From assembly GCA_964187785.1 (NCBI GenBank), contig OZ076410.1, positions 86,490,001 through 86,554,000 on the forward strand: 64,000 nt of DNA. The letters run 5' to 3'. Position numbers and translations under genes: made by a program. Position 1 is the first letter of the stretch; every line of letters starts with the position of its first letter. Positions 1 to 54,282 of this stretch are shown in pieces. The notes beneath the pieces were generated by a model, which was given only the letters and a program-made list of their open reading frames with translations, was not told the origin of the DNA and searched no databases. Source of the stretch: Amphiscolops sp. MND2022 (taxonomy: Eukaryota).

Positions 1-1551
1 TCAAATCTAGAGAACAAATCTTTCCATCTCAGCTTGTTTCAAAAGACACCGAAAAGACGAAGACAAAAGGGAAGCTTACGCTAGATCCAAATCTCCTCAA
101 AAATCATTTGTACAATACTTCCGTTCTCATTGCATTTATAGAACAAAACGCTATGATACACGATACCGAAGTAGAAGTACATCACGAAATAAATCTTACA
201 ACAACAACAATTCACAAAACAGATATCGCTCTACAACTAGAGATCGATTTAGATATGACAAAAGTACTACTCATCCACACTACACTAGATCACGATATGA
301 CAACTACCAAAGAGACTCGCGATCTTATCGCTCTCCTTATATATCCTCATACAGATGACCTTATAAACGTGACTCTCGTCACAGATACAGATCACGCTCA
401 TATTCAAGAGATAACAACAGATTTACATCTAATTTTCAGACCATCTTTCAGACCTAGAGATTCTTGGTTTTCTAGATCTCGCTCACATTCCAATACAAAA
501 AAAGCAACTCAATACAATTCAACCCAAATTGGCCCAATTAACTTTGAAGTACAAATGTATCACCCATTTGAAATGGGAAACGCTGTAACACCTACGAGTT
601 GGTTTTACTCTTTATATACCCATACTCCATCAAACCAAAACCAACGTGACTCCCTATATAGATTGGAAATTTCTTTCCTTTTGGATAGCGATGCTTCCAT
701 TTCTGTATTAAACAAACCTACCTATATTACAAGTGCAGATTTTCTTAATAATAAACAAAATACTACACTGAATGCTTCAAAAACTTTAACTGTTGCAAAT
801 CAAACTGAAGTTCCTTTTTTGCATTATGTGAGCGTAATTCTTAACACAATAATAGCAGACGAGTCTTGTCAATTTACAATACTTTTTGCAGTTGCTGACA
901 TGAAATACAACATTCTTGGAACACAATTCTTTGAAAATACAGAACATAAACATCCAAGATTTTACATTACAGTTCAAACACCAATTAAAAGTCTATCCAA
1001 ATTATACAAAATTTAAATCACTCTTATCCAAAGACTACCCATGTTTCTCATGTATACAGAATCAATTCTGAAACACAAATTCGTCTGAAACCTAACTCTT
1101 CCAAAATTGTAAACTTTTCAATAAAAAAAATATTTTAACCTTCATTTTACAACTTTGCCACAAATCAATTCTTTCCTACAATTCCACACACTTTTTTCTC
1201 TACTAAACTTTATACAAAGTTCAATTTTATTGAAGTTTTCACAGATGATAAACAAAACACTTGTGCGAAAAACATCCAAAACTCTACAAACTATGTTGCA
1301 ACAACCCCTACCGGTCCTATTGGATACATAGAAGTTCCAATTACGAACGAAAAACCTAAATATTACATAAATGACATTAACACTCTAATACACTATGTTA
1401 CCCATACAAACCATCCTGAAATCACAGAAGTTATACCACAAACAAATTACTCTTTACAATATACAGAAGACATAGTTCCTTTTCATCATTTTTCACTACA
1501 CCAAATATATATGACAAATTCTGACATACCACCAATAACTTCAGTCCTTTA
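1..1551 (+). mobile_element. Ty3/gypsy family A, first (partial) copy: gag 3' end (RS-rich) + aspartic protease + PR-RT linker
   Basis: Near-identical to 6985-8535 (offset ~6984 bp). Protease motif FLLDSDAS is present in ORF 108..1016. Similarity to the second copy stops at ~1551-1555. Confidence 0.9.
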
Positions 1552-2360
1552 CAACTGCATTACACATCTGCGGCCAACTGACAGCTCGCGAGACCATTTT
1601 CATGTAGCCCGTTAAGAGGATCAACAAAACTTCATATACATATGTTAAAGAAAATGCCAAAAATCACAACATACAGGGCAATTTCAGGACATTACCGTTA
1701 ACCACCAGGTGTAGAGCCTCAGATGACATACAAACAATGTAAAAAGTCTAGAACATCTCTGCGTAAACATCTCCAACCAGAGCCAGCTCGTTCTGGGCGC
1801 CAATCACCAGATGGTCGGCTCTATTAAAACCATTAAGGGAAGCAGTCCGAAGCGATCCCTCTGAGTTCGCCATGAAATGTGATTTCTCCATGTAAGGCCA
1901 AGCTGTCACCATTGCCGCTGCTCACTCAATAGAGATGGAGGAACACATGGCATGGTAATTTGCCCGGGAGAGTCGCTCATGGCCATGAGTTCATTCTGCC
2001 TCCCTCGCGTAAAAACTGTCCTGTCAGATGAGGATTCCGTTTCGTGTGGAGTGCTGAAAAGCCTGATCCAGTCTGTAATTGCTATCAGTAGCGTGAATTA
2101 CGCTTTTTCCTCGAAGCTACCGCTTAGATAGTAATATACCTATGGTTCATTCTTTATTCATCTTCCCCCTCCCATATATTGAATAACTACAATTGATTTA
2201 TTGAATTATTGAACTATGTATTTTGAGTTTTGATGTATCTAATTTTTATTCAATACTATATTTCATACTGTAACGCACTTTCTGATTTATACTACAACAC
2301 AGCGAAATAAAGTCTCCACTGTTCAGTTGCCTTCCCTTCAGACCTAATATCTGCAGCTCA
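1552..2360 (+). mobile_element. 5'-truncated LTR of gypsy family A
   Basis: Non-coding and more GC-rich than its flanks. AATAAA at ~2306, ends ...GCAGCTCA, followed 2 nt later by PBS-like TAGTGAC (TGGTGAC with one change). No second LTR in the window to confirm. Confidence 0.6.
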
Positions 2361-2362
2361 AT

Positions 2363-2369
2363 TAGTGAC
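2363..2369 (+). promoter_or_regulatory. Degenerate primer-binding site of gypsy A
   Basis: TAGTGAC directly after the CA end of the putative LTR. Confidence 0.4.
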
Positions 2370-2504
2370 TTTTTTCAAAGTACTTTCCAGCTTCAAAACA
2401 ATCTAACATCCATACGAGCACACCAAAACCAAGCACTTTAACTTGCGAGACCAAGAAAATTCTTCATTCCTTCATCTTTTCTACTGTAATAAAATCTTTT
2501 TTAG

Positions 2505-2820
2505 TTTCTGTACTAATCAGATCCAGTGGTACGATATTTCTCATGTCGGTACAAAATAATTCATTTCTTCTGTACAAATCACCATAAAAATTGATCGACC
2601 TCGTAGTCGGTACATCTTCAATTTCTCTGCACTAATCACAACAAAGTGGTACGACCTTGTAGTCGCTACAATGCTTCCTTCTGTAGTAATCCAGTTGGTT
2701 CGACTCCTGTTGGTACAAGTGAAGTACTGATCATCTTCGATTCGACATTTTTGTCGGTACACCCTTTTCTGTACTAACCAAAAATTTTTTTGGTTCAACA
2801 TCTCTGTTAGTACAACAAAC
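2505..2820. repeat. About 6 degenerate 45-60 bp tandem units (TTCTGTACTAATC...GGTACGAC...GTCGGTACA) in the gypsy A leader
   Basis: Paired GTAC-containing motifs recur, e.g. at 2507, 2569, 2627, 2680, 2723 and 2768. Confidence 0.65.
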
Positions 2821-3821
2821 ATTTCATCCCTTTTTATACCTTTTTTTGCCTTCTCTAAAAGATTCTGTTTGTCTTTCCATAATTTTGCTGTATTTTTGAG
2901 GCCTTCTCGCGATTGTTTTTCTTCTCGTCGACAAATTCATGATTGATTTTATTCCCCGATAACAATTTGAAATCTCACTTCAAATTTTACACTGAGAATT
3001 TTGCAACGATTTTTCTTTTTGCCTCATACATTTTTGCGATGCTCGTTTTTCTCACGCATCTGTGATGCCATGATGCATTTCCCCATTTTTTTTCGAATAT
3101 TTATCTAACCTTGAAAGGTACCCACTTTTCTTACGACAGATTGATGAAACTTGGTGATAACTTCATCTTATCAACTGTCACTTTAAAAGGATTAGCATGA
3201 TTGTAATCTTTTGTAATCATTGATGAGATTACTGAAAAATTATAAACAGAGAAATTAGAATCTGATCTACTGAACAGTCTTCCGGTAGAATAGACCTAAA
3301 CTGAGATCTCAGAGAAAGAATTGTGAAATAGCTATAGCTGGTAACTTAGACGATTTGCTGTTAGGATTCCAAGACTTCTTATGTACTCCATGAAAGATCT
3401 AAAACTAACAATACCACACATCTTATACAACTCAATTGGTGCGATCACGAAAATTTTTTTCTCTCTTCTCTGGTACCGCAAATCTACTCTTCTTGTACAT
3501 CTTTTTTCAACCTTGTCATCCGATATCTCTTTGTCTCATTGTTCGACGCACCATCTCTCCTCCTCTTTTCATCATCTACCGTTCATAACTTGACGTTCCA
3601 AACAGTTTTCTTCATCATTGAAAATTGATTCGTTTTGGTATGGTTCTGACTACGTCAACGAAAGTAATTCCTGTTTGTTGAAATTCCTTCCGTTCCAACC
3701 GCGCAGACGTGTGATACGTGTTGGTCTTTCTACAGTGCAATGCATTCATTCCTGCTAGTAAAAACACTTTCGTTCTAGCAGCTTCGATCAACTTTAACGT
3801 TGGCACACCTACAATACACAA
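2541..3821 (-). pseudogene. Probable decayed antisense accessory ORF in the gypsy A leader
   Basis: ORF pieces 3615..3821 and 2541..2822, plus a manually read frame ~3655-3060 (…KIFVIAPIELYKMCGIVSFRSFMEYIRSLGILTANRLSYQL…DYNHANPFKVTVDKMKLSPSF…EKWVPFKVR…EKKWGNASW) with several stops. The plus strand here is pyrimidine-rich, unlike the A-rich gag strand. Confidence 0.4.
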
Positions 3822-4052
3822 TACATTTCCAACAACACATTATTTTGATACACATCATCCTTTCTAGAATATCCAGTACATACGAACACTTTTTCTAAAA
3901 CAAAGTTTAACGGATCGAAATAAACATTTTACGTAAAATTAACAAACAAAAGACCTAACTTTCAAACCCTAAATAACATATTCAACAATTTTCTTTCTAG
4001 TACATATTATACTACAACTTTTAAAACATAACTTTTCACCTCAGATATATAA

Positions 4053-4430
4053 ATGCATTCAGCTGATGATATTGTAAAAATCATTATATGCGTTTGGATC
4101 TCTTTTGCACTTCTTGCTGGCCTTGCTCTTTTCTTTGACACTTTTTTGGTACCTTTTACACCTAAATTCCAGTATATAATGTTCTTCCTCTTTATGCTTA
4201 CAAGTATAGTACTACCTCTTTTTGGACTACTTAGTATCTATCATACCTTTTGTACACTTATTGCCTATATTCCTAATATATTTCTTCTCAACATTTCTTC
4301 TTTGTACAGTACTTACAATGTTTCTCCAAACTGTCTTTGTAGATCAAATAATACCATACAACTTTATTTTTCAAGTAAAATATCTTATTGTACAGTACAT
4401 CTATCCTCTATGACAAACCTATTATTCTGA
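4053..4430 (+). CDS. 125-aa hydrophobic ORF with two predicted TM segments immediately upstream of gag
   Basis: ATG start, uninterrupted. Hydrophobic stretches IVKIIICVWISFALLAGLALFF and YIMFFLFMLTSIVLPLFGLLSIY. Confidence 0.5.
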   Translation: MHSADDIVKIIICVWISFALLAGLALFFDTFLVPFTPKFQYIMFFLFMLTSIVLPLFGLLSIYHTFCTLIAYIPNIFLLNISSLYSTYNVSPNCLCRSNNTIQLYFSSKISYCTVHLSSMTNLLF

Positions 4431-4449
4431 TTAGTCATTAAAGAACACA

Positions 4450-7400
4450 ATGCTTCCTACACCGTTTTTATTATTATCTGACCAACGTCAAAAACGTTCA
4501 CTTACTCAAGATGTTGCACCATTTTTAAATAACATCATCTTTCAGCAGTACACAACCCTCTCTCTTTCGAATCAGAAGCCCATACAATACAAACCATTCC
4601 TTTGATTCGATAATATTGTGTCTCTTATCCGTAAGACACTAGAAGTAAGACAAACAGAAACTCCTTTTCAACTTACCTTTAACCCAGTCCAAGGTATAAA
4701 GACAGGAACATTTTATAAAACAATTCATCCACAAAAAAAACCTTATCTATACAAGATGTTTTAATTATTCATATGAACAAACGCATAGAAGACAATGAAA
4801 ATGTAGAGCCACCACTATACCTTCCTTCCCACTCAGAAAGTCTCAAAGAAAAACATGAACTTTTTGAAGTTCCAGATCTTGGAACAAAATTACAACGACA
4901 TGATAATCCTCACTATTGGGTACAACAAGAGATACTACAAATCAAACAATTCCAGTACAGACTCTTCCAGAGCATCATACTCAATGAAGATACAGTTCCA
5001 CAATTTGAAACACTTTCCGAATGTTTGTTAAAATTTCTTAGATTTAACTATCAGTTACTATGGGAACAACAAGATCAAGACGCATATATCAACTTTCCTC
5101 AAGTATTAACAGAAGTTGAACTTCTACAATTCGAAATCGTTGAAAGAAATAAACATTCACATTGCAGAGATCTTACATCCTTTAGCACAAATTACTTTGA
5201 ACTAATCAAATTTGATAATGATTTTAGAATAGAAAATTCTGAAACATCAGACAAAAGACCCCACACAACATCTACTTCGTTTGAAGAAAGTGATCACGAA
5301 ATTTCACAACTCAATCCAGATAATAACAAACAAATATCCCAAAATCAAGAACCTCAACAACTAAACATAGTACTACATTACAAAACTTACCAGATTTTTT
5401 TAATACTCTTACAGTTCAAAATGTTTCAAAACTCTCTGATACAAACACAAACAACCCACAACGTTTTACAATAACTAACGATTCAAACATATTACAAATC
5501 CCTGTGCGAAGTGCTACTCAGAACACAAACAATGACCAAAATCAAGATAATACGTCCACATTATCTACATCAAACACTACTGAAACTAAACCATTCCCAA
5601 CACAACAACCATCTCGAAACTATGACCCACCTCCTCTGCCAACACAATATTCTACTCAAACTACTCCATATAACTCTCCTCAACAACGTTCCTCCAATAC
5701 AAATGGCACTAATACCCTTCAAGTTCAATCTGAGACACAATTTTGCACTACTACTCATCCAAGACAACCAATCCTGCAAACTTTATTGTACACTCCAGCT
5801 CAAACCACACAAACTCAAAATATACAACCTGGTGTAACCATCAATACACCTCACTCAAGTATTTTATCTAACCATATTACCTCTAGAAATCTTTCTAGAC
5901 CTCCATTACAAATTATTCCTAGTAACCCATTATCATACAGTCTTACGAGTACAAATCCAAATAACACAAACCCTTTTCGACAGTTAATAATCAACAAAAC
6001 TTTATTAATCAATCCTCCACATCCTTCCTCATCCATATATTATATCACAAAAGATGACACAAAATACACGATCTCACACATCTAATCGTGCCTACACAAA
6101 TATAAGAAACAAATCCTCACATTAAGACTTAACCTTTTTTTACATACACTTAACCTTTTACAAATCCACAAAATATATATTGAAATACTTCCATTACACC
6201 TACCTACAATACTGTGTTTCCATCTACAAAACCCCAATATACAGTTTCAAATCCAACATATATTAACTCATATACATCAATTTCTAAACCTATCAAACCC
6301 TTTGAGAGTTTAGATCATAATTATACACAAGAAGAAAATTTACAACATATTGAGGCACGTGTTAGATTTTCACTAGGTTATCAACCTACGTCTGACATTG
6401 AATATAAATTTTGGCACGCTAGAAGAATGGTTTTTATACAATGTTTTCAACTGGTACAGTTCTTAGTTGGTACATTCGTTTACATAATACTTATAAACAA
6501 GATTGGCACGATTAAAAAAAACAATTTTCTTCTCAGAAAAACGCCGCCTACTATGCTCAAGTAGAAGCCCTTTATTTAATGAAAAAGGACAATGAAACAG
6601 TTCGCCACTTTGCACTCAAAGTTCAACAACTAGTTGAAAAAGGCTGGTGCAATGAAAATGTTTCCACAATTAACTTAAAATGCAACGAAAGCTTTACAAA
6701 AGGACTTCCGAAAAGCCTAAAAGGCTCTGCTAACAAAAGACAAGTAAACACGTCTCTACTTTTTTGAAACCCTCAATTCCATTCCATAAACTGGTCAAAC
6801 TTGTTGATGCGGAAGACATAGCAAATGATACAATTAGAACACATGATCTTCCTCTTGAAGTAAACAACATTGCAAAACAATGACAAACTCAAACTCTTGA
6901 TTCATCACAACAAAAACAACTTATATTTACACAACCTAAAGACCCAAAAAATAAAAATAAACCTGCATATAAAAAATATTGCTCCTATTGTCAGAGAACA
7001 AATCTTTCCATCTCAGCTTGTTTCAAAAGACACCGAAAAGACGAAGACAAAAGGGAAGCTTACGCTAGATCCAAATCTCCTCAAAAATCATTTATACAAT
7101 AATTCCGTTCTCATTGCATTTATAGAACAAAACGCTATGATACACGATACCGAAGTAGAAGTACATCACGAAATAAATCTTACAACAACAACAATTCACA
7201 AAACAGATATCGCTCTACAACTAGAGATCGATTTAGATATGACAAAAGTACTACTCATCCACACTACACTAGATCACGATATGACAACTACCAAAGAGAC
7301 TCGCGATCTTATCGCTCTCCTCATAGATCCTCATACAGATGACCTTATAAACGTGACTCCCGTCACAGATACAGATCACGCTCATATTCAAGAGATAACA

Positions 7401-7530
7401 ACAGATTTACATTTTTTTTCAGACCATCTTTCAGACATAGAGATTCTTGGTTTTCTAGATCTCGCTCACATTCCAATACAAAAAAAGCAACTTAATACAA
7501 TTCAACCCAAATTGGCCCAAATAACTTTGA
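4450..7530 (+). pseudogene. gag: Gypsy A gag (fragmented): N-terminal domain, Q/T/P/N linker, capsid, CCHC-like knuckle, RS-rich tail
   Basis: Capsid-like KPFESLDHNYTQEENLQHIEARVRFSLG…WHARRM and KKDNETVRHFALKVQQLVEKGW…FTKGLP. Knuckle CSYCQRTN(L)SISAC. RSRS/RY-rich frame ~7050-7450. Many frameshifts. Confidence 0.85.
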
Positions 7531-7537
7531 ATTACAA

Positions 7538-7999
7538 ATGTATCACCCATTTGAAATGGCAAACGCTGTAACACCTACGAGTTGGTTTTACTCTTTATAT
7601 ACCCATACTCCATCAAACCAAAACCAACGTGACTCCCTATATAGATTGGAAATTTCTTTCCTTTTGGATAGCGATGCTTCCATTTCTGTATTAAACAAAC
7701 CTACCTATATTACAAGTGCAGATTTTCTTAATAATAAACAAAATACTACACTAAATGCTTCAAAAACTTTAACTGTTGCAAATCAAACTGAAGCTCCTAT
7801 TTTACACTATGTGAGCGTAATTCTTAACACATTAATAGCAGACGAGTCTTGTCAATTTACAATACTTTTTGCAGTTGCTGACATGAAATACAACATTCTT
7901 GGAACACAAATCTTTGAAAATACAGAACATAAACATCCAAGATTTTACATTACAGTTCAAGCACCAATTAAAAGTCTATCCAAATTATACAAAATTTAA
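7538..7999 (+). pseudogene. pol: Gypsy A aspartic protease (active site DSG changed to DSD)
   Basis: FLLDSDASISVLN and NILG motifs. The same DSD is present in the copy at 1-1551. Confidence 0.85.
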
Positions 8000-8639
8000 A
8001 TCACTCTTATCCAAAGACTACCCATGTTTCTCATGTATACAGAATCAATTCTGAAACACAAATTCGTCTGAAACCTAACTCTTCCAAAATTGTACACTTT
8101 TCAATAAAAAAAAATATTTTAACCTTCATTTTACAACTTTGCCACAAATCAATTCTTTCCTACAATTCCACACACTTTTTTCTCTTCTAAACTTTATACA
8201 AAGTTCAATTTTATTGAAGTTTTCACAGATGATAAACAAGACACTTGTGCGAAAAACATCCAAAACTCTACAAACTATGTTGTAACAACCCCTACCGGAC
8301 CTATTGGATACATAGAAGTTCCAATTACGAACGAAAAACCTAAATATTACTTAAATGACATTAACACTCTAATACACTATGTTACCCATACAAACCATCC
8401 TGAAATCACAGAAGTTATACCACAAACAAATTACTCTTTACAATATACAGAAGACATAGTTCCTGTTCACCATTTTTCACTACACCAAATATGTATGACA
8501 AATTCTGACATACCACCAATAACTTCAGTCCTTTATATTGTACAACCTACTTCTCACACTTCAAAACCTCGAATTTTTCCCTCATTACCATACACTACAG
8601 AAAATCTCAAATTCAAAAACAAATGAAACTTCTACTTTT

Positions 8640-9505
8640 CTGACTTAACTGGTACTGAATATATTACACTTTGTAATTTGATACGCCAATGAAAAACATG
8701 CTAGGCTTCACACAAAAATGATGTTGGTAAAATTGCAACCCAAATTCGTTTTAGACTCAAACCAAACGCTCAACTTACTACACAACGTCCTTCTAAAGTA
8801 CCAATTCATTACCATGACAAACTCAATACTCTTTTTAACGAACTAGAAAAACAGAACGTTATCCAACAAATTGGTTCTTCTCCACAAGACAAACCAGCTT
8901 ATGCCACAACCTCTTTAAATCCCCTTATTATAACACCAAAAGGAGACTCTACCAAATGTGTATTAGACGCTAGACATCTTAATTCAAAAACAGAACAATC
9001 TGACGCATCTTGGCCTATTGAACCTCTTGCTCCTCAATTAGCACGCACAAACAAAAAATACAAGAGTGCAATAGATCTCATGTATGCCTACGCACATACA
9101 CCCCTTGATGAAAAAACAATCAAACTCAGAAGTTTCTCATCAGGTGATGAACTCTTCGTTTTTATACGACGGTTTTATGGTCGTGAAGGACTTCCAAATT
9201 TTACTACAAATCAAATGTTGAACTTCTTTAAAACTCCTCTTTTTGAACAAGGTTTTGCTCTTGTTTATTTTGATGATATTTTACTCCCGTCAAACTCAAA
9301 AGAACATATGTTTCAACTTTTTGAACAAACTACATATTATCAAATTAGCTCCTGAGAAATACTTATCATGCTTCTCAAAGTCAATTTTCTGGGACATGAA
9401 TTTGGTTACAATACAATGAAACCCATCCACTCCAAAATTGCAGCTTTTCACAAAATTCCTTCTCCTACTGGAAAAGTTGCTCTAATGAGTTTCATCGGCG
9501 CACTC
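8640..9505 (+). pseudogene. pol: Gypsy A reverse transcriptase; RNase H and integrase deleted after ~9505
   Basis: QRPSKVPIHY, CVLDARHLN, SAIDLMYAY, ALVYFDDILL, VNFLGHE, IPSPTGKVALMSFIGAL. The sequence then jumps directly to post-integrase tail sequence. Confidence 0.9.
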
Positions 9506-10260
9506 ATTGTACCTCAAGAATATCTCATCCAATTCGAAGATTTTTTGTTGTCTTGCAACATTCCTACCACAATCGTAAAACCTCTTACTGTTATCAAACC
9601 CCTAAATTTTTCTCCACTCAATCTTATTACACTGCTCTTTCAAAACAATTACATTCCTATAACGAACTGCTCTTCTTTTCTGCTAAAGTCATTTCCTTAA
9701 TGGTACAAACCGAAAACAAATCTGAACACAAACCTCCTCTTCTAGAACATACATCACCCATTCGTACTATTTTGACAAACACTCTTCTATACTCAATAGT
9801 CGTACGCTTCGTGATATAACACAACTGCTAGACCCATACAAACGAAACCCATCTGACTTGCATATCACCATTCTCACAAATCTCATTCACTGTCCTGAGA
9901 GAACACACAAATCTTACAATCCCTTGACTTAGATTCACAACGTATCACACAATCATCACAAACAATAAAATCTGCTCTTGATTATATGACTAGTCTTTTC
10001 AACTCAACTAATCTTCAAATCTCCACACAGGTATTACAAATTTCCTAATCTTTAACCCCCATGGAACACAAATGGACATTAAGGTTTTCCATGAATCCGT
10101 GAATGTTGTTTTACTTTTAAAAACCTATGGTACATACACTCTACATTCAAAACTTTTCCTTGGAACTATTCTATGTTGTTTTACTCCTAAAAAACCTATG
10201 GTACACGCCCTACACATCAAAAACTATTTCTACAAGAAAACTACAATACAAAATTAGCCC
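9506..10260 (+). pseudogene. Remnant of long post-integrase Pol tail of gypsy A
   Basis: IVPQEYLIQFEDFLLSCNIP aligns with CVPQQALNLDDDFLLPTNIP at 62834-62893 (11/20 identical). Confidence 0.6.
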
Positions 10261-10461
10261 GTTCTAACAATATATAGCACGAAACGTTTATAGTACAGAC
10301 ATTGATAAAAAACGAAGAATTTTTCTGTTCACAGAAGTCTTTTGTTATAGAAAAATCAATTCTTCTTCCTCCTTCTTCTTTGCCTCTTTGGTCGAAGCCC
10401 ACTACGGTGAAACTATATTATCAGGACTTCTCACAAACTCCAAACACATCGTCGTATTACA

Positions 10462-10840
10462 ATGGCTCCTCCAGATCCTAAAACAAATTCCAAATTCATT
10501 TCATCTAACAACGCCAACAGTTTGAAAGCAGCTATATTTCACACCATGGCGTTTAAAATGTCTCTGGAGATCAACAATGACACAGTTACATTTCCTACGA
10601 AAAGATCCTTCTTAAAGGTCTTCTACAACATCTGTAAAAGAAAGAAAAAGAATATAAAATTCGAACATTAAACTTCATCTCAAGGGCCCTGAAGTAGCCA
10701 TTTGTGAAACCGCATCAAATATGGTTTCCGTCTTGAACTCGTTCTTCACTACAAAAGACCATAACTTTCAAGTTGCAATCGCTGAAGCTTGTGAAGCTTT
10801 CAATAAATGCTGTCACATTTCGGGTACACTCAAAATCTAG
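10462..10840 (+). pseudogene. Extra 3' ORF of gypsy A (frameshifted)
   Basis: ORF 10462..10671 (MAPPDPKT…ICKRKKKNIKFE) continues in another frame as PEVAICETASNMVSVLNSFFTTKDHNFQVAIAEACEAFNKCCHISGTLKI*. Confidence 0.4.
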
Positions 10841-11140
10841 AATTTTATGACCCACAGACGCATCAAGTCAATCCTCCACAATCGCATCCGTTTTGCTGAA
10901 TAAAAAACATACTTACTTTCACTCTTATTGTTTCACTACTTGACTTTCTTTTTGATGATGATGTCTTTTTGATGATTGTAGTTGAACAAGTTGTTCACTT
11001 CCTTCAAACCTCCATACACGGGAAACTTTCTCTACTATGATGGACTTTCGTCTCATGCACTATCAACTCGTTTGTTCAACGCCATTCACCGTTCCTAACT
11101 GGTATTCTTCATCGAAACTCGACATCTACACCTTCAAACC

Positions 11141-11265
11141 CACTGGTCACTGGTCAATGGTCTTCTTGGTCACTGGTCATCTCTATCGTCAATGGACTTC
11201 TACATCTTCAAACTCACTGGTCACTGGTCTCCTACATCGTCACTGGTCTTCTACTTGTCACTGGT
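11141..11265. repeat. Seven CACTGGT heptamers in the gypsy A 3' region (copied at ~14072-14196)
   Basis: CACTGGT at 11141, 11148, 11171, 11215, 11222, 11241 and 11259. Confidence 0.85.
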
Positions 11266-11860
11266 CAACACCCCGTTCCTTCGCTCCAGAAAAACACTCC
11301 CAGGAAGGAGCTTTAAACTGACTCTACAGTATTTCAAACAATAACTAATTTTTTTACTCTTAAAACTTTTATTTCAATACATCCACCATAACAACCACAA
11401 TTTGGACCCATTATAACTTTAATCATTCAACCGTGTACTCGTAGTTACTTATTATAATTTTATAATGATGTTGATCGTAGTCTATAACAATAGCCGCATG
11501 TTAATCTAGCAACCACAAAAATTGAAATCTTATTACCCAATGTATGTTAATTTGTAACATTTGCAATGACAGAAATTGTACCTCTTAATAATCTTTCATT
11601 GTCATTGTGTAAAATTCGCAAATCATTCAATCCTCCATTGATAAACGTGCATAGTACAATATGATTCTACCTTCTTCTTACAGTACAAAAACCCTTCCTA
11701 TGATACAAAATGTCTTCTGTCCAAATAACACGAAAACGTTCATTTTACTTAAGAGTACAACATCTTTTACAAAAATTTGAAAAAAACTTCCAAGTAGAAC
11801 AAATTCTTTGCTTCCTATTTGCTAGTCACTTCTGTTGAAAATAAACTCGAATTAGAATCT

Positions 11861-13026
11861 TGAATTTTCAAAACTTCTTCATTCTTGGTTCAAAAACCCG
11901 CCACTGTTTGTTCACAACTCATTGACAAACTTTTAGAATAATTCTTCAACTCAAAAAGTTTTCAACTTTGAACAACTTATGCTGAAGAACACATACTTTT
12001 CAAACGAGCTGATGGCAGATACGAAAATTCACAAATAGTAGGAAACAAGTTGTCAATAAAAACTTGAACAAAAATGTCAGTCATTCCAAACTGAAAATTT
12101 TGCCTCAATTTGAAGTCAAATCGTCAAAGGTTGTTCTCACTCCCTAAGTAAGATACACTTCTAGAACAGGACTTATTTCACCTTTAGGTTTAGTATATGG
12201 AACAGTTCATTAGTTTTTATGAACAAAGTTTTTTTCCAAATTTGTCATCTGTGATGAACAAGTGTGTTTTGAATTTGACCATTTTTGACGTTAGTAGCGA
12301 GTACCAGGCTGAAGGGTGAGCTTCCTGGGACCAATTTAATTGACCAATCAGCTTTGAGCGCTAATATGCTAAGCAAGCTGTGTAGCCGTCTCCAGCATTT
12401 CACCAGTCGACTGAAGTTGAGACGACCTCCTAGTCACTCGACTAAATTACTAAATTATCTGAAAGTATTTAGTTGTTTAATACAATGTGTGATGTAAACT
12501 CCGGCCTAGAAGCGGTCTAAAAGGAATTACAATGAGTAAAAAGGTAATGACGATGATGTTTTGTTGCTATTTTAATTTTTGATGATTTTAAAGACTGAGT
12601 CAACAGCCAAAGCAGCATACGGAAATTATTCATTTGAGTCAATTGCTGGAACAATCTACTAGCAAATGTGAATAATCACGAACGGTAAACGTGCTAATGT
12701 ATTGTAAACTGCAATTTTGTACGAATGATTGAGTGCCGTTGCGGTATATTATATTGTAATGATATTAATCTAACTTCTTTAAAATTCTGAAATCAGTTTG
12801 GAATGACTGACATTTTTGTTCAAGTTTTTAATGACAACTTGTTTCCTACTATTTGTGAATTTTCGTATCTGCCATCAGCTCGTTTGAAAAGTATGTGTTC
12901 ATCAGCATAAGTTGTTCAAAGTTGAAAACTTTTTGAGTTGAAGAATTATTCTAAATGTTTGTCAATGAGTTGTGAACAAACAGTGGCGGGTTTTTGAACC
13001 AAGAGTGAAGAAGTTTAGAAAATTCA
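11861..13026. repeat. Long inverted repeat: 234-bp arms (11861-12094 / 12793-13026), 698-bp spacer
   Basis: The arms are reverse complements with about 5 mismatches seen. Outer ends are TG...CA. No TSD found. Confidence 0.9.
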
Positions 13027-14793: not shown

Positions 14794-15959
14794 TGAATTT
14801 TCAAAACTTCTTCATTCTTGGTTCAAAAACCCGCCACTGTTTGTTCACAACTCATTGACAAACTTTTAGAATAATTCTTCAACTCAAAAAGTTTTCAACT
14901 TTGAACAACTTATGCTGAAGAACACATACTTTTCAAACGAGCTGATGGCAGATACGAAAATTCACAAATAGTAGGAAACAAGTTGTCAATAAAAACTTGA
15001 ACAAAAATGTTAGTCATTCCAAACTGAAAATTTTGCCTCAATTTGAAGTCAAATCGTCAAAGGTTGTTCTCACTCCCTAAGTAAGATACACTTCTAGAAC
15101 AGGACTTATTTCACCTTTAGGTTTAGTATATGGAACAGTTCATTAATTTTTATGAACAAAGTTTTTTTCCAAATTTGTTATCTGTGATGAACAAGTGTGT
15201 TTTGAATTTGACCATTTTTGACGTTAGTAGCGAGTACCAGGCTGAAGGGTGAGCTGCCTGGGACCAATTTAATTGACCAATCAGCTTTGAGCGCTAATAT
15301 GCTAAGCAAGCTGTGTAGCCGTCTCCAGCATTTCACCAGTCGACTGAAGTTGAGACGACCTCCTAGTCACTCGACTAAATTACTAAATTATCTGAAAGTA
15401 TTTAGTTGTTTAATACAATGTGTGATGTAAACTCCGGCCTAGAAGCGGTCTAAAAGGAATTACAATGAGTAAAAAGGTAATGACGATGATGTTTTGTTGC
15501 TATTTTAATTTTTGATGATTTTAAAGACTGAGTCAACAGTCAAAGCAGCATACGGAAATTATTCATTTGAGTCAATTGCTGGAACAATCTACTAGCAAAT
15601 GTGAATAATCACGAACGGTAAACGTGCTAATGTATTGTAATCTGCAATTTTGTACGAATGATTGAGTGCCGTTGCGGTATATTATATTGTAATGATATTA
15701 ATCTAACTTCTTTAAAATTCTGAAATCAGTTTGGAATGACTGACATTTTTGTTCAAGTTTTTAATGACAACTTGTTTCCTACTATTTGTGAATTTTCGTA
15801 TCTGCCATCAGCTCGTTTGAAAAGTATGTGTTCTTCAGCATAAGTTGTTCAAAGTTGAAAACTTTTTGAGTTGAAGAATTATTCTAAATGTTTGTCAATG
15901 AGTTGTGAACAAACAGTGGCGGGTTTTTGAACCAAGAGTGAAGAAGTTTAGAAAATTCA
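14794..15959. repeat. Second copy of the 234-bp-arm inverted repeat (inside the duplicated unit)
   Basis: Offset 2933 bp from 11861-13026. Confidence 0.9.
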
Positions 15960-22581: not shown

Positions 22582-22594
22582 GTCCGGAGACCCA
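22582..22594 (-). promoter_or_regulatory. BEL primer-binding site (TGGGTCTCCGGAC)
   Basis: Begins 3 nt after the CA end of the LTR. Decayed copy near 27447-27459. Confidence 0.5.
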
Positions 22595-36860: not shown

Positions 36861-36869
36861 TTCCACTCC

Positions 36870-45001: not shown

Positions 45002-45282
45002 ACGACCAAATCTTTGAATCGCATATAACGTTTACAGATGAAGACTTGTTGGAAAAAAATGGACTAGAAACAAAAAACATCAGACGGTGCGTATTAAGAC
45101 AGCACTTCTTGTTGTCCCCGTAGCTAGTGGTATAGGTGCAGGTTTATGAAAACTCAGTAAAATTGCAAATCTTAATTAAAATCTGAAAAGCAAAAAAAAC
45201 AACACAATCTTAGGAAAAATACTCTTGCTGGTGGAACTTCAAACGATTTCCACAAACTACACGCGAAGTGTTTAGAAGACAA

Positions 45283-45408
45283 TAAAATCGATCTGAATGA
45301 ATATAACCAACTAACACAAACTTATACTACATATAAGTATACATATAAAATCGATCTGAATGAATATAACCAGCTAACACAAACTTAGATTAGATATGAG
45401 TATACATA
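45283..45408. repeat. 2 x 63-bp tandem repeat
   Basis: TAAAATCGATCTGAATGAATATAACC at 45283 and 45346. Confidence 0.85.
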
Positions 45409-45985
45409 TACTACACACAGAGGAAAAGAACTTAGTCAAACTTCTTGAGCTATCAAACTTAACTTTTGTATTATAATAGCTCAAAACCGAGAAGAAACAA
45501 ATTATCCTGATATGTTAGCAAACTTCAAGTTGTTCGAGCATTGAATTAAATGATGGTGCTAGCTGACTCGAATTATTTGTTGATGTTTAACCTTTCGAGT
45601 TCAACCTGTCGAAAGTATCGTAAATATCAATCATCTGACTCCGAACTTTGACCTCAAAAATGAATCTTGAAATGTTTCTGAAGTTCATGAATATTGCATT
45701 GAAGTATTACAATTATTCATGGTGGTGTGATGGAAAATTCCTTCCAGAATATTCGATTTTAAAAGTTAAGGAAATGCCCATCCGCCTTCTTCCAAATTGC
45801 CCCACCTTTAACAAACGTCATGTTTATTTTTGGAGTGTAAATACCCGGTGGTTTCCACAATTTTACACAGCGCTCATCAACTGAAATAACCTTCCCATCT
45901 AATAGTCAAATTGACTCCTTTTTCGAATTGTCTTTCTTGTGTCTGAAAGAAAGTCTTGACTCTTCAGCCACGTCCCAGCCTAATG

Positions 45986-46252: not shown

Positions 46253-49200
46253 AATGGAAGGCTCAAGTAATAATCTTAAATTGCTCTGCTTCTCGGAATT
46301 AACTGAGGACCCAATCTGGTGTAGCAGATTTCAAGCCCTTGCTCAAACGAAAGGCCTATTCGATACGCTCACTGGCGATGACCGACCACCAGCCCAACCC
46401 CGGGCTTGGGAATGACGCAACTGATGAGGCCCGCGGTGCTCACGACGCAGCTCAAGACGCATAGACGTGCTTTTGATGACATCGAGAAACGTAAAAACAC
46501 GCTGTGGTGTTACCTTGCGATGTTTCTTGACTCAACAAGCCTGATGTTGATCATGCATGATTGTGTTGACCGCAAAGGCCTCGGCGATGGCCACAAGGCA
46601 TGGGGCCGTCTGCAAGAAAGGTTCCGAAGCAATGAATTAGAGACTGTTGTCAGTGTGATGAGGCAACTGGCTCGCTTGAAGCTGAAAGAAGACGAGGCAC
46701 TCCACAATTGTTTCATTAGAGCCCAAGAGCTCCCAAATTGCCTGGAACAAGCGGGGGAACACCTATCGGGCCACTGTTCAATGCGATGGTACTCAATGGT
46801 TTACCTGAGCGCTATGAGCACTTAGTGGTGCAAGAGAGCTTCAATCCATCTGGTAGCTTCATGGAGATTCGAACACGGCTGACCAACTGCGAAGAGAGCC
46901 GTCCACACTGCGAGTTTGTGGATGAAGCGGATTCACATGTGGCGATGACGTCCAAAAAGGCCAGGCCAAAGCACAAGTCAAGTAAAGATAACGCGGCGCC
47001 TAAGTCAAGTTCAGGACGACTAACAGGCTACTGTTGCGGCATGAAAGGCCACATGAAACTGAGTGTTATAAGAGAAAAAAAAGCCGAAAAAACTTTTTAT
47101 AAGCAAAGATGCCATCTCGAAAAAGCATGTAACAAAAAGAGCTAAAAGGAGGCAAGCAACGAAGTTTTGCATCATGTCTCAAGTCAGAAGAAACGAGCGA
47201 GGCATCCGCTAAGGACCTAGTAGTAGACTCAAGAAGTACAGACCATGTAATAGTGAACAACAACTGGTTCAAAAACTTTAAAGAAGTAGATACTACAGTT
47301 ACCAATTCTGATGGGGGTAACACAAAAGTTCCTTGGCATAGGAGATATCGAGGTCCTAGCTCAAGACGTGAAAGGACGTACTAAGCCTTTAGTCTTACGA
47401 AAACCCTTATATATGCCAGGATACCGAACTATCTTGATCTCGGTATCCAGTCTTGTAGACAATGGACACAAGGTTGTTCATGACGCGAAAAACAGTTTCC
47501 ATTGCCTCAAAAGCAAAGAGTTATTCCACATCACAAGAAAAGGAAATCTTTTCTTCCTAAGTAAGACCCCAAAGCAAGGAAACCACTTTGCTAATTTGAG
47601 TGGGGGGTCAAACGAAGCACAACTATGGCAAAAACGTTTCGGACATGAAAATTAGAGGGACCTACAAAGTTCTCTGTCGAAAAACCTGATAGAAGTAGAT
47701 GAAAAATGCGAAACTTGCTGCTTAGCCAAAAATAACCAAAACGCCTGTCCCAAAACCAAATTACAATAAAGCAACAAAAACTCGTGAAAAGGTTATCAGC
47801 GATCTTGTTGGACCAATCACTCCATCAATCGAAGATGTGTTTAGATACTTCGTCACGTTCATTGACGAACACAGTTTCCATGCTTGTGTGAAGTTCATGC
47901 GTCACAAAAATCAAGTTCTGCAAAAGTTCAAAGAGTACATCGCTGAATGCGGTACGTCACGTAAACTCCGGTTTGACAATGGAACCGTTTATACTAACAA
48001 AATTCTCGCGACCTTTCGTACCAACATCAAAATCAAACGAGAATACACCGTTCCTGAAACCCAGGAACAAAATGGTGTCGCAGAGCGATACACCCGAGCT
48101 GCTGTAGAGACCGCTCGAAGTCTTCTAATTGAGTAAAAACTTCCAAAATGCAACTGGCTCAGAGCTGTAGATACTGCAGCTTATGTAAGAAACCTGTTCA
48201 AGAAGGACAAAGGAGAGAAGACTCATTTCGAAAACTTTTGGGGCAGAAAACAGACAGATCACTTGAAAGCTTTGGTTGTCTAGCATATGTGAAAAACCGA
48301 AAAAGTGAAAAATCAAAAATCGATTCGAAAGCACGAAACATGTTTTCCTTGGCTACGATGGCAACAGTACGGCCTACCTGTTGCAAGACTTTGAAACAGG
48401 AAAATTGACACGAGTTCGCAACGTTGTGTTCAAGGAAAAAAGAGTAGTTGGTTTCACCATCGAAACAAGGGAAGGCGAAAATGAAGATCTTCTCTTCGAT
48501 GTAACTTTCGACGATGAAATTGAGCAAAGCAATGCCGAAAATTTACAAAAAATAGGAGTGAAGGAGAGGGTCCGGAAATTGAAGTGAAAGTTGAAAGCGC
48601 CACTGATGAAGAAAACTCATCGTTTAGCGAATGTGGATTTTATGTTGACACTACTATCACGATACTTCCTAACTCAGATGTACAGGTTCAGGATGTAACG
48701 CGGAGTAGGTCAGATCAAGTATTTTAGGCACGACGGCCAAAAATTTCTGTCCTCAGGAACGCTATCAAACATCAAGTGATGTTCAGCAAACTCCTCAGGT
48801 CGTGAAACCAAAAATCAAAGTACCCAGTCAATTGAAACTAACTACAAAGAACAAAAATGTAATCCCGGGAATATGGGTTTACAAAGTCAAACTAAAGCCG
48901 ACGGAAGCCTTGAAAAATACAAGGCGCTTTATGTGGATAAAGGTTTTAAGCAAATTGAAGGCTTAGACTTTTCTGAAACGTTTGCTCCAACGAACAAACC
49001 AGAATCTCTTTGAATCATTCTTTCGTTAGCAACGAAAGAAAATTTTGGATGTAAAACTAAGGCAAATGGATGTAAAATCAGCCTACTTACATCAAGAAAT
49101 CAAAGTAGAGATATACCTCGTGCAACCGACTGGTTTCGATGAAACAGACAGCTCGGGAAACAAGCTTGTCTGTAAACTGAACAAGTCAATGTACGGACTG

Positions 49201-50256
49201 AAGCAGGGCGCTAAAAGTTGGTATGAGGAGTTAGCGAACTTACTCATAAATCAAAAATTTTGCCGTAGCAAAAATCACCACTGTCTTTTCATTAAAAAAC
49301 AAGACAAAAGAAAGTTGTATGTTCTAAGTTGGGTAGATGATCTAGTGATAGCAGGTAGCAACGATGGGGACATGAAAGAGTTAAAAAACTCTTGAAAGAA
49401 AATTCAAGATGGACGATCGATGAAAACTCGAATGGTTCCGAGGCATGCAAATAAGTCAGGGAAAAGACAAAATATCTCTTGACCAGGAAACATGTTTTGA
49501 AAGCGTCATAGAGAAATTTAGCATGCGAGTTAGCAATCCTTCGAAAACGCCAGCAGAGAACAACTTGAGAGTAGTTAAGTCCTTTGAGAGTGAAGCATCG
49601 GTTAATGAGAGGATCTACAGAAGTTTGGTAGGCTCCTTACTATAAATAGTCAAGCAAACTAGGCCAGATATAGTTTGGATGGTCAATGTGCTCTCTCGAT
49701 TCATGGACAAACCAACTAACACTCACTGACTGGCAAACGTGTCCTCCGCTATCTTCAAGCCACGAAGTCACTCAAACTGGTCTACTCACGAGACAGTGAC
49801 TCCAATCTACATGGAGAAAGTGATGCAGACTGGAGTGGCGACCATGATGACAGACGTTTGACCACTGGCTACTTTTTCAAGCTTGGATCAAGTGGGGGAG
49901 CAGTAAGCTGGCAAACTAAGAAGCAGCAGGCAGTGGCACTATCATCATGTGGAGCAGGACATCAAGGTCTAGCTGCTGCAGTGCAAGAAGCATCTTTCTT
50001 GCGATCACTCTTGTATGAAGTGGGCTATGAGCAATCACATCCAATCATCATTGGGGAAGACAATCAGAGTTGCATCAAGTTGGCAACTAACCCTGTGATG
50101 CACGAGCGATCAAAACATATTGATACGAAGTTTCACTTCATACGGGAGAAAGTTGATGACAATTCAATTCAACTAGTCTATACGCCAACTGATCATCTGG
50201 CAAAAGATCTGTTGACAAAAGAACATCCACAAGTTAAAGTGGAGTTAATTGCGTAA
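46253..50256 (+). pseudogene. Copia-2 gag-pol
   Basis: DGHKAWGRLQERFRS (gag). LVVDSRSTDHV (PR, DSG changed to DSR). SDLVGP, FIDE, FDNGT and EQNGVAER (IN). QMDVKSAYL and SWVDDL (RT). SDADWSGD and GEDNQSCI (RH). Confidence 0.92.
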
Positions 50257-53200
50257 ATTGCAGTTTTTTCATACGACAAACGGAACAATCTGAGTGGGGG
50301 TGTTGTGGAAAAAAACTTGAGATCTCTCTCTCAAATTTCTTGAGGTAATAAACTTAAACTTTTATGTTATTAATAGTTCAAAACCGAGAAGAAAAAACTG
50401 ACCTGATATGTTAGCAAACTTCAAGTTGTTCGAGCAAGGAATTAAATGATGGTGCTGCTGACTCGAATTTTTTGTTGATGTTTAACCTTTCGATTTCAAC
50501 CTGTCGAATGATTTGTAACTATCAATCATCTGACTCTGAACTTTGACCTCAAAATTTCATCTGGAAATGATTCTGAAGTTCATGAATATTGCATTGAAGT
50601 ATTACATTTATTCATGGTGGTGTGATGGAAAATTCCTTCCAGAATATTCAATTGTAAAAGTTAAGGAAATGCCCATCCGACTTCTTCCAAAGATCCTCAC
50701 CTTTAACAAACGTCGTGTTTATTTTTTGGAGAATAAATACCCGGTGCTTTCCACAATTTCACACAGTGCTCATCAACTGAAATAACCTTCCAATCTAATA
50801 GTCAAATTAACTCCTTTTTCTAGTTGTCTTTCTAAACGAAAGTCTTCACTGCTCAGCCAAGTCCTAGCCTGATCAAAACAATTAAACTAGTCAAAATCTG
50901 AGTTTAGTTTTTTTAGGATAAATTTGTATTGAAAAACGATATAAGTATAGTTTTCAGATCGTGAATAATTCTGATGAATCATGTCAATGGTTTATATTTT
51001 TTCTCTGATATGAATGAAATTATTTTCTTTGAAAGTGAATATGCCCTTGATAATTCTATTCCTTAAAATGATTGTTTTGAATACTCCTCAAAATGTTTAG
51101 CTACAATCAACAACAATGTTTCAAACACTTCAATCGGTTTCCCAAAAGAAGATGCATATATTTATCTACAGAATTCTTACTTGTCATATGACTTTGAAAT
51201 TCCTTAAAGTGATCACGCACGCTACGTAGACAACGATCTATTAGAATTGGTTAATTTTGGGACTTGCTTTAGTTAGTGAAACCATACTGGTGACAACTTC
51301 AGGCGAGCATCTAGAGAAAGGTGAAAACCTGCACCCGGTATGTTTAATAACCAAGCTTCTCACCACCAACCAACAAACAAGCCAACTAATATACGGATTT
51401 AAAGAGTCAGAAAACACTAGGCGACTAGTATTAACAAACCATAAAGTAGAAGAGGAACATTTCGGAGGGAATTTAATTAAAAGAATTGTTTGGATTTGCT
51501 TATGAAGAAAAAATTTCATAAATTTCATAAATCAAACATCAAGTGATGTTCAGCAAACTCCTCAGGTCGTGAAACCAAAAATCAAAGTACCCAGTCAATT
51601 GAAACTAACTACAAAGAACAAAAATGTAATCCCGGGAATATGGGTTTACAAAGTCAAACTAAAGCCGACGGAAGCCTTGAAAAATACAAGGCGCTTTATG
51701 TGGATAAAGGTTTTAAGCAAATTGAAGGCTTAGACTTTTCTGAAACGTTTGCTCCAACGAACAAACCAGAATCTCTTTGAATCATTCTTTCGTTAGCAAC
51801 GAAAGAAAATTTTGGATGTAAAACTAAGGCAAATGGATGTAAAATCAGCCTACTTACATCAAAAAATCAAAGTAGAGATATACCTCGTGCAACCGACTGG
51901 TTTCGATGAAACAGACAGCTCGGGAAACAAGCTTGTCTGTAAACTGAACAAGTCAATGTACGGACTGAAGCAGGGCGCTAAAAGTTGGTATGAGGAGTTA
52001 GCGAACTTACTCATAAATCAAAAATTTTGCCGTAGCAAAAATCACCACTGTCTTTTCATTAAAAAACAAGACAAAAGAAAGTTGTATGTTCTAAGTTGGG
52101 TAGATGATCTAGTGATAGCAGGTAGCAACGATGGGGACATGAAAGAGTTAAAAAACTCTTGAAAGAAAATTCAAGATGGACGATCGATGAAAACTCGAAT
52201 GGTTCCGAGGCATGCAAATAAGTCAGGGAAAAGACAAAATATCTCTTGACCAGGAAACATGTTTTGAAAGCGTCATAGAGAAATTTAGCATGCGAGTTAG
52301 CAATCCTTCGAAAACGCCAGCAGAGAACAACTTGAGAGTAGTTAAGTCTTTTGAGAGTGAAGCATCGGTTAATGAGAGGATCTACAGAAGTTTGGTAGGC
52401 TCCTTACTATAAATAGTCAAGCAAACTAGGCCAGATATAGTTTGGATGGTCAATGTGCTCTCTCGATTCATGGACAAACCAACTAACACTCACTGACTGG
52501 CAAACGTGTCCTCCGCTATCTTCAAGCCACGAAGTCACTCAAACTGGTCTACTCACGAGACAGTGACTCCAATCTACATGGAGAAAGTGATGCAGACTGG
52601 AGTGGCGACCATGATGACAGACGTTTGACCACTGGCTACTTTTTCAAGCTTGGATCAAGTGGGGGAGCAGTAAGCTGGCAAACTAAGAAGCAGCAGGCAG
52701 TGGCACTATCATCATGTGGAGCAGGACATCAAGGTCTAGCTGCTGCAGTGCAAGAAGCATCTTTCTTGCGATCACTCTTGTATGAAGTGGGTTATGAGCA
52801 ATCACAGCCAACCATCATTGGGGAAGACAATCAGAGTTGCATCAAGTTGGCAACTAACCCTGTGATGCACGAGCGATCAAAACATATTGATACGAAGTTT
52901 CACTTCATACGGGAGAAAGTTGATGACAATTCAATTCAACTAGTCTATACGCCAACTGATCATCTGGCAAAAGATCTGTTGACAAAAGAACATCCACAAG
53001 TTAAAGTCGAGTTAATTGCGTAAATTGCAGTTTTTTCATACGACAAACGGAACAATCTGAGTGGGGGTGTTGTGGAAAAAAACTTGAGATCTCTCTCTCA
53101 AATTTCTTGAGGTAATAAACTTAAACTTTTATGTTATTAATAGTTCAAAACCGAGAAGAAAAAACTGACCTGATATGTTAGCAAACTTCAAGTTGTTCGA

Positions 53201-54282
53201 GCAAGGAATTAAATGATGGTGCTGCTGACTCGAATTTTTTGTTGATGTTTAACCTTTCGATTTCAACCTGTCGAATGATTTGTAACTATCAATCATCTGA
53301 CTCTGAACTTTGACCTCAAAATTTCATCTGGAAATGATTCTGAAGTTCATGAATATTGCATTGAAGTATTACATTTATTCATGGTGGTGTGATGGAAAAT
53401 TCCTTCCAGAATATTCAATTGTAAAAGTTAAGGAAATGCCCATCCGACTTCTTCCAAAGATCCTCACCTTTAACAAACGTCGTGTTTATTTTTTGGAGAA
53501 TAAATACCCGGTGCTTTCCACAATTTCACACAGTGCTCATCAACTGAAATAACCTTCCAATCTAATAGTCAAATTAACTCCTTTTTCTAGTTGTCTTTCT
53601 AAACGAAAGTCTTCACTGCTCAGCCAAGTCCTAGCCTGATCAAAACAATTAAACTAGTCAAAATCTGAGTTTAGTTTTTTTAGGATAAATTTGTATTGAA
53701 AAACGATATAAGTATAGTTTTCAGATCGTGAATAATTCTGATGAATCATGTCAATGGTTTATATTTTTTCTCTGATATGAAAGAAATTATTTTCTTTGAA
53801 AGTGAATATGCCCTTGATAATTCTATTCCTTAAAATGATTGTTTTGAATACTCCTCAAAATGTTTAGCTACAATCAACAACAATGTTTCAAACACTTCAA
53901 TCGGTTTCCCAAAAGAAGATGCATATATTAATCTACAGAATTCTTACTTGTCATATGACTTTGAAGTTCCTTAAAGTGATCACGCACGCTACGTAGACAA
54001 CGATCTATTAGAATTGGTTAATTTTGGGACTTGCTTTAGTTAGTGAAACCATACTGGTGACAACTTCAGGCGAGCATCTAAAGAAAGGTGAAAACCTGCA
54101 CCCGGTATGTTTAATAATCAAGCTTCTCACCACCAACCAACAAACAAGCCAACTAATATACGGATTTAAAGAGTCAGAAAACACTAGGCGACTAGTATTA
54201 ACAAACCATAAAGTAGAAGAGGAACATTTCGGAGGGAATTTAATTAAAAGAATTGTTTGGATTTGCTTATGAAGAAAAAATT
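48764..54282. repeat. 2767-bp-period tandem duplication (48764-51515, 15-nt insert, 51531-54282): copia-2 RT-RH-3'LTR + Polinton capsid 5' part
   Basis: Paired ORFs 49045/51812, 49858/52625 and 50543/53310. Extra LTR at 53068-53642. Confidence 0.95.

Follow-up and report, generated by a model that had tools for sequence, protein, structure and literature searches.

The locus analysed here raised the question of how kilobase-scale head-to-tail duplications came to be piled up in one stretch of an acoel genome, and whether the process responsible acts throughout that genome. The window, which is the whole 64-kb stretch analysed (C2:86490001-86554000), lies within a 1,067-Mb assembly of Amphiscolops sp., in which 13 contigs are of chromosome size and C14 measures only 17 kb. 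Self-alignment of the window recovered all six periods listed in a preliminary description made from the sequence, two of which (6984 and 4865 bp) had to be re-read as units of other lengths. Seven head-to-tail events of 0.75–7 kb touched the window, three of them nested within others, and eight events lay within 73 kb when the upstream flank was included. The copies in the window were 0–4% apart, in agreement with the earlier view that the events recurred over time. Positions are those of the window, with negative numbers upstream, and the features carry no strand.

The period of 6984 bp reflected a real repeat (9–1551 versus 6993–8535, 98.0% identity), but not the length of a unit. The upstream DNA gave a 6970-bp tandem duplication, with copy 1 at -8053 to -1084 and copy 2 at -1083 to 8535 (1–8535 in the window; 97.2–98.4% identity), and a 2635-bp duplication nested in copy 2. 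The second copy of the nested duplication occupied positions 4–2638, and the first, which lies upstream of the window, had been hidden from the preliminary description. The two copies aligned at -2626 to 0 versus 9–2635 with 99.2% identity (0.84% divergence). An LTR pair was rejected as the source of the 6984-bp period because the match extended upstream to the full 6970-bp unit. The join of the 6970-bp unit, located upstream of the window, was blunt, and that of the 2635-bp duplication contained a 5-nt insert (4–8) that is found again 8 nt into the unit. A further 2576-bp duplication (-18907 to -13747, 95.8% identity), joined at TG, was found 14–19 kb upstream.

The 2931-bp tandem duplication (10625–16490; 99.1% identity, 0.82% divergence) spanned a retroelement relic and a 234-bp inverted-repeat element, as well as a portion of a repeat family of 500–600 bp, and its join was marked by AC (13556–13557). 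The apparent period of 4865 bp (96% identity) was also a real repeat, but its unit was ~4.1 kb, with a 748-bp doublet in copy 1 and three 1821-bp units in copy 2. This ~4.1-kb tandem duplication (22385–34850), joined at ACC (27253–27255), was the oldest event in the window, at ~4% divergence. The nested 748-bp duplication (25094–26596) had identical copies (100%) and the join CTCCTAT (25842–25848). The three nested 1821-bp units (28919–34387; ~99% identity) were joined at TC (30743–30744 and 32564–32565), and their divergence was 0.71% between copies 1 and 2, 1.21% between copies 2 and 3, and 1.15% between copies 1 and 3. Since both junctions were identical and copies 1 and 2 were the closest, the third copy likely arose later by unequal exchange. 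The 2767-bp tandem duplication (48764–54282; 99.6% identity, 0.40% divergence) ran from inside a copia pol through the copia LTR into a Polinton-like relic, and carried a 15-nt self-repeating insert at its junction (51516–51530). The structure and nesting of the units were directly visible, and the junction letters AC, ACC, CTCCTAT, and TC and the 15-nt insert read the same in the assembly as first described. The sole run of N in the window (62489–62688) was >8 kb from any junction, and no gap was found near any duplication junction in the assembly sequence, from which alone the junctions were read.

All units sat in transposon debris, and the window breakpoints fell inside dead transposons. 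This setting favours repeats made by the transposons themselves, through tandems that share an LTR or through unequal exchange between copies of an element, as does the third 1821-bp copy, which reuses an existing junction, and one duplication outside the systematic sample described below, which has 40-nt homology at its join. However, diverged relatives elsewhere in the genome aligned straight across the breakpoints at 8535, 10625, 22385, 34850, and 54282, and the overlaps were 0–7 nt, not LTR-length. The units therefore begin and end within elements and did not arise by transposition, as had been proposed. A transposon-made origin of the first duplication events was largely refuted, and this explanation is extremely improbable. 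The Pfam domains supported several of the element names given earlier, with copia RVT_2 inside the 2767-bp unit and BEL-type DUF1759 and a double-jelly-roll capsid in homologues of 21058–22830 and 54149–55372, but the gypsy label had only a weak RVT_1 match (E 0.002).

Units with identical copies (748, 1486, and 1224 bp), and several others <1% apart that could be allelic, would also fit an assembly artefact in which two haplotypes or overlapping reads were written in tandem. PTIP-like exons recurring 164 kb apart on C5 (94–99.5%) may likewise be a false duplication. In contrast, the joins were base-precise and gap-free, with non-random microhomology or novel inserts, and the nesting was copy-specific, each old copy having its private nested events, with divergence of 0–6%. 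Furthermore, the units were shorter than typical long reads, and a long-read assembly is suggested by the 13 chromosomes with 200-N gaps. An artefact is very unlikely.

The spread of the duplications was determined by self-alignment and hand check of a systematic sample of 30 blocks of 40 kb, placed at fixed 20, 45, and 70 Mb positions on all 13 chromosomes. Fifteen clean duplications of at least 500 bp (12 of them at least 1 kb) were observed in 12 of the 30 blocks and on 9 of the 13 chromosomes, and the process was genome-wide, as anticipated. The density was 12.5 per Mb (95% interval 7–21), or by extrapolation ~12,000 on the chromosomes. The median unit size was 1.9 kb, with most units at 1–3 kb and a large tail of 7.0 and 11.1 kb and a probable 10.2 kb, the 40-kb blocks under-counting large units. 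The duplications found across the chromosomes spanned 0.5 to 11 kb, and their copies were 0–6% diverged. The density left out a macrosatellite at C8:20M together with two tangled repeats from the same place, the C11:45M block, which was likewise tangled, two repeats running off their block (5.5 and 10.2 kb), a 252-bp pair separated by a 55-nt spacer, every unit <500 bp, and two events of a non-systematic C6 block.

Extra copies amounted to 32.2 kb of the sample, which was 2.7% on the strict count and roughly 4–5% with doubtful cases. The ~25% reported earlier for the window was a local extreme. Six young LTR elements, recognised by TG..CA termini and target duplications of 5 bp, spanned 67.7 kb in 21 sample blocks, and this total was at least twice that of the duplications. 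The other 9 of the 30 blocks, in which repeats were tangled, were skipped in this count. Retrotransposition was a larger recent source of DNA than tandem duplication. Tandem duplication is therefore not the main driver of expansion, and the earlier proposal that it may be driving genome expansion was overstated.

The window was ~10 times denser in duplications than the systematic sample. The counts per block were Poisson-like (mean 0.5, variance 0.47), and seven events in 64 kb had a P of 2e-5 for one window but were expected ~0.3 times over the genome's 15,300 windows. The window was therefore extreme, not proof of a hot spot. Its flanks, 81 kb upstream (-100 to -19 kb) and 180 kb downstream (54 to 234 kb), contained no duplication of at least 500 bp. 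Events piled up in the window, an extreme stretch of old transposon debris.

These counts are compatible with an ordinary background, in which repeat-rich animal genomes would gather POLQ-type duplications at like density in unconstrained DNA and purge them slowly, the RING-less BRCA1-like gene described below being coincidental and the window a random tail. Drosophila populations likewise carry many duplications with blunt, microhomology, or insert joins, according to passages of two population studies (PMC4069613, PMC4056370), but Drosophila is no control for the background rate because it is itself BRCA1-less. The passages cited for other species count against such a background, with 0 duplications in 240 generations of wild-type C. 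elegans (PMC7368036) and 1 duplication in 450 generations of Arabidopsis (PMC13031629). The near-zero wild-type counts indicate that such duplications are normally rare, as opposed to the ~12,000 estimated in this genome. An ordinary background was given an even chance.

The junctions provided the evidence for the mode of joining. Microhomology lengths were read by hand, and units of 444, 183, and 199 bp were included in the junction counts. All 13 sampled junctions that lacked an insert had microhomology of at least 1 nt (1–5 nt), compared with 45.5% of position pairs drawn at random (P 4e-5). When the six insert-free joins of the window region were included, it was present at 18 of 19 (1–7 nt, P 8e-6). 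At least 2 nt was shared in 13 of the 19 (null 17.7%) and at least 3 nt in 9 of the 19 (null 6.4%, P 9e-7). Two further threefold cases had junction microhomology of 3 and 2 nt. Six junctions contained inserts of 5–39 nt, the best match of each lying at most 23 nt from a breakpoint. The P values of these matches were 0.42, 0.39, 0.006, 0.20, 0.055, and 0.28 (one of six below 0.01; combined P 0.013). The inserts matched neither flank, one was a 21-nt patchwork, and they were likely templated from nearby DNA.

Taken alone, microhomology also fits slippage during replication, or a switch of template at the fork, between short stretches of microhomology (MTD or MMBIR), in which no POLQ-joined break is involved. 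The excess at the junctions and the 7-nt arm of the 748-bp unit favour this explanation, and MTD is reported to occur across the tree of life, with a link to Rad27 in yeast, in the sections cited (PMC13167724). However, the six joins with inserts, including the 21-nt patchwork, had these instead of arms, the overlap was only 1 nt in 5 of the 13 sampled insert-free junctions, and one window join was blunt. In addition, kilobase-scale units are longer than an Okazaki fragment, which speaks against this origin. Slippage or template switching is unlikely.

The duplications are probably inherited scars of replication-linked breaks, made by sister-chromatid copying and then joining by polymerase theta. 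One end of a replication-linked break would copy 1–7 kb from the sister chromatid, and the copied end would fail to re-anneal and be joined by polymerase theta instead. The excess of microhomology, the short inserts, and the presence of a POLQ gene were in keeping with the polymerase-theta type previously assigned to the junctions. The roles of aborted sister copying and POLQ are likely, by analogy with worm, plant, and mouse genetics. POLQ-dependent duplications with microhomology and templated inserts are described in C. elegans helq-1 mutants (PMC8654963), and the same POLQ-dependent junction hallmarks in brc-1/brd-1 (PMC7368036) and tnsl-1 (PMC13031629) mutants. In the cited parts of these C. 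elegans studies, the model is sister copying without re-annealing followed by end joining (PMC8654963, PMC7368036, PMC13031629).

The genes of this pathway were sought in the assembly. An open POLQ polymerase frame was read directly, with pol theta as its best match (E 3e-90) and helicase exons adjoining it. Disruption of POLQ by an in-frame stop was rejected because the stop that separates the long frames falls at an intron-like GT..AG. HELQ, identified as a second helicase of the POLQ family that lacks a polymerase domain, had an open 955-aa frame with its motifs (C26:34134-36998), and TONSL, whose named relatives are tonsoku-like, had an open 1161-aa frame (C1:25.25 Mb). Loss of HELQ or TONSL was rejected as a cause, since both have long open frames. 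A FANCM-type gene, whose presence had been left for checking, was found by a helicase exon matching FANCM (E 7e-35); the FANCM MHF-binding profile, which was uninformative, had no match in the genome. BRCA2 was present, as its OB1 was found, and CtIP, Ku70/80, and LIG4 were present at least as exons, LIG4 being named from the reading of its frame. Loss of CtIP, FANCM, Ku70/80, or LIG4 was rejected, since exons were found for each. Long open frames were read for HELQ, TONSL, and the polymerase part of POLQ, and the other genes were identified at exon level.

The integrity of BRCA1 and BARD1, also raised at the outset, gave a mixed result, with a BRCA1-type BRCT pair present, the RING absent, and BARD1 not found. 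The locus C6:20481750-20487862 encoded BRCA1-type tandem BRCT exons. P0001, the closest library relative of the gene, mapped to four exons at this locus and to no other strong locus, and its BRCT pair matched BRCA1 with E 9e-21 and BARD1 with E 3e-4. A single BRCT exon of the locus, taken alone, matched BRCA1 only (E 0.04). At the start of the first long frame of the gene there was a C2H2 finger instead of a RING. The gene was named BRCA1-like because the BRCT of BRCA1 is present but a C2H2 finger replaces the RING. No RING motif was found in the 41 kb upstream, and none of the 149 RING profile matches, obtained by scoring the best 150 of 678 candidates, lay near the gene. No longer relatives of the N-terminal frame were found. 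An acceptor-like AG precedes the ATG, and a coding exon may lie upstream of it.

A protein of the acoel Convolutriloba macropyga (XP_075245733.1, 1030 aa) had BRCT domains and a weak C2H2 finger but no RING, and aligned exon by exon, in order, to the C6 locus. On this one gene, the genome would likely be that of an acoel. The RING was therefore missing in two species, Amphiscolops sp. and C. macropyga, and its absence was not an assembly slip. In one survey, according to the part cited, the N-terminal RING of BRCA1 is kept in every orthologue (PMC8483008).

BARD1 was searched for with profiles, motifs, and TONSL ankyrins as queries, in searches that were exon-blind and scored the top candidates only. 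The RING profile gave two sub-threshold matches among 73 candidates, both of which were read as other RING genes. The BRCT profiles gave 37 and 150 matches, mostly of a transposon-borne BRCT gene, and none of the 25 and 8 loci read was BARD1. Two patterns for ankyrin motifs matched at 3 and 2 places, none BARD1-like, and the TONSL ankyrins gave 36 matches, of which the 22 and 5 judged by eye included none that was BARD1-like. Within the reach of these searches, BARD1 is likely absent from the genome.

Suppression of such duplications is attributed to BRCA1, BARD1, and CtIP in the passages cited, which also list the RING among the domains that resection needs (PMC13672311). Joint loss of the RING and its partner BARD1 would be coherent. 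The RING-less BRCA1-like protein and the apparently missing BARD1 would weaken end resection and would likely be a contributing cause. That natural BRCA1-BARD1 loss caused the duplications is a plausible but tentative proposal, of rather low probability. Equally speculative is the wider reading that, in this acoel lineage, a C2H2 finger took the place of the BRCA1 RING and BARD1 was lost, and that the lineage thereby became a natural and viable germline tandem duplicator with ~12,000 POLQ-sealed duplications. Dipterans lack the entire BRCA1 complex, as described in the cited part of one study (PMC6849265), and its loss can therefore be compensated.

The duplications were compared with known systems, as these are described in the cited parts of the respective reports. 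Those of C. elegans helq-1 are also head-to-tail and germline-inherited, with microhomology and templated inserts (PMC8654963). Their size of ~100 bp–10 kb, with a median of ~1 kb, is nearer to the 1.9 kb found here than the BRCA1 type is. However, HELQ is knocked out in that system, whereas an open HELQ frame with its motifs was found here, and fresh mutations are seen there, whereas the events here are old, fixed or assembled, and differ widely in age.

The Group 1 duplicator, known from BRCA1/BARD1-deficient tumours, mouse ES cells, and C. elegans brc-1/brd-1, shares dispersed, non-homologous duplications with microhomology or inserts and the presence of BRCA2 (PMC7368036, PMC13672311). Here the BRCA1-like gene was likewise abnormal, with a putative loss of function, and BARD1 was not found. 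The units are 10–20 kb in brc-1/brd-1 worms and ~10 kb in BRCA1 tumours, compared with a mode of 1–3 kb here (PMC7368036, PMC13672311). Furthermore, mutants are concerned there and a natural lineage here, in which the BRCT repeats are kept. The likeness to a BRCA1-deficient duplicator noted earlier held for the junction type and the dispersal, but not for size (median 1.9 kb versus ~10–20 kb). Duplication size is reported to scale with cell-cycle length in the passages cited (PMC13031629). Loss of TONSL/TONSOKU gives the same junction type, genome-wide, with DNA added each generation, but in units of 25–300 kb, and the TONSL frame is open here (PMC13031629).

The natural duplications of Drosophila are also found in wild, BRCA1-complex-less animals, are mostly young, and include many non-homologous joins (PMC4069613, PMC4056370, PMC6380325). 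In contrast to those here, they are population variants in a compact genome and are mostly removed by selection. BRCA1 is lost there as a whole, not the RING alone, and no link to BRCA1 is drawn in the cited passages of these papers. MTD shares microhomology at most joins and doublets that can grow to arrays, but is defined by pre-existing arms, leaves inserts unexplained, and includes no animals of this kind in section 9 of that source (PMC13167724).

The mechanism is already known from mutants and tumours, and POLQ-sealed tandem duplications are known. A literature search returned no report of an acoel or natural BRCA1-linked duplicator, or of a RING-less acoel BRCA1. A wild animal genome in which POLQ-type duplications can be counted genome-wide, beside a BRCA1-like gene that is RING-less in two species, appears to be new, and the RING-less BRCA1 is a new, testable lead. 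It raises the comparative question of whether BRCA1-BARD1 loss in a lineage predicts the density and size of POLQ-type duplications. If the proposed link is correct, loss of a DNA-repair gene would act directly on the architecture of a genome, and these worms would offer a living model for a BRCA1 that lacks its RING. The BRCA1 scar of cancer would then be written into the inheritance of a wild animal. If it is not, a first density figure from one genome (~12 per Mb, ~3% of the DNA) would still be provided, although the supplements of PMC13167724 and of the Drosophila papers may hold per-genome densities, and the 25% of the window would still be exposed as a local extreme.

The small doublets of 129, 63, and 55 bp of the preliminary description were likewise recovered by self-alignment, and all three were minor. 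The 129-bp doublet (35600–35857) was old, with 81% identity. The 63-bp doublet (45282–45410) had 92% identity and a 3-nt overlap, and the 55-bp doublet (59281–59394) had 100% identity and a 4-nt overlap.

The BRCA1-like gene of Amphiscolops sp. MND2022 (assembly G000), which carries BRCA1-type tandem BRCT exons, was located at G000:C6:20481750-20487862 (stretches L177 and L164). A C2H2 finger takes the place of the absent RING at its N-terminus, a feature common to this gene and XP_075245733.1 of the acoel Convolutriloba macropyga. No BARD1 was found in the G000 genome by RING, BRCT, ankyrin-motif, and ankyrin-similarity searches, which were exon-blind and scored the top candidates. The sole HELQ-like gene found in G000 was located at C26:34134-36998 (L188), on an unplaced contig of 154 kb, with a GC content of 39–40%, in line with other host genes.

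Upstream of the BRCA1-like gene, at a distance of 7 kb, lay an 11.1-kb tandem duplication (C6:20451995-20474224; L174-L176), whose copies were 99.8% identical with a 6-nt insert; two LINE elements were copied within it.

BRCT sequences also occurred elsewhere. Near-identical, high-copy open frames of 617 and 594–628 aa, with a BRCT domain at their end and no other Pfam match, were present at L215:1318-3168 and more than 100 other places, with related families in L157 and L264. Their carrier is likely a young transposon, and one copy lay downstream of the window (C2:86606918). PTIP-like BRCT exons were found twice on C5, at 67.50-67.53 and 67.67-67.70 Mb (L147/L148, L151/L152, L203/L204), 164 kb apart with 94–99.5% identity; haplotypes falsely duplicated in the assembly would account for this, as would a large duplication.

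Two triplications, C6:45001609-45010429 and C4:45013518-45018639, shared the odd layout A-B, A-C-B, A-C-B, the first copy lacking the middle part (C) in both. A macrosatellite at C8:20022370-20038319 (L047-L048), composed of ~1.4-kb units with 302-bp sub-repeats and 88–97% identity, apparently grew via repeated duplication.

Around the window, an 18-kb downstream stretch (window coordinates 69840-87998; L011-L013) recurred 75 kb further downstream (144622-163136; L019-L020) with 94–96% identity, not head-to-tail. Two satellites lay 40–60 kb upstream of the duplication cluster: a 10-kb array of a 5-bp satellite, bordering an assembly gap, at -49078 to -38587 (L006-L007), and a 220-bp satellite at -61236 to -57727 (L004-L005). 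Within the window, the coding strand of gypsy-like relics showed a very strong C-over-G skew of -0.3 to -0.5 (1-12000, 23000-37000, and 60000-64000).
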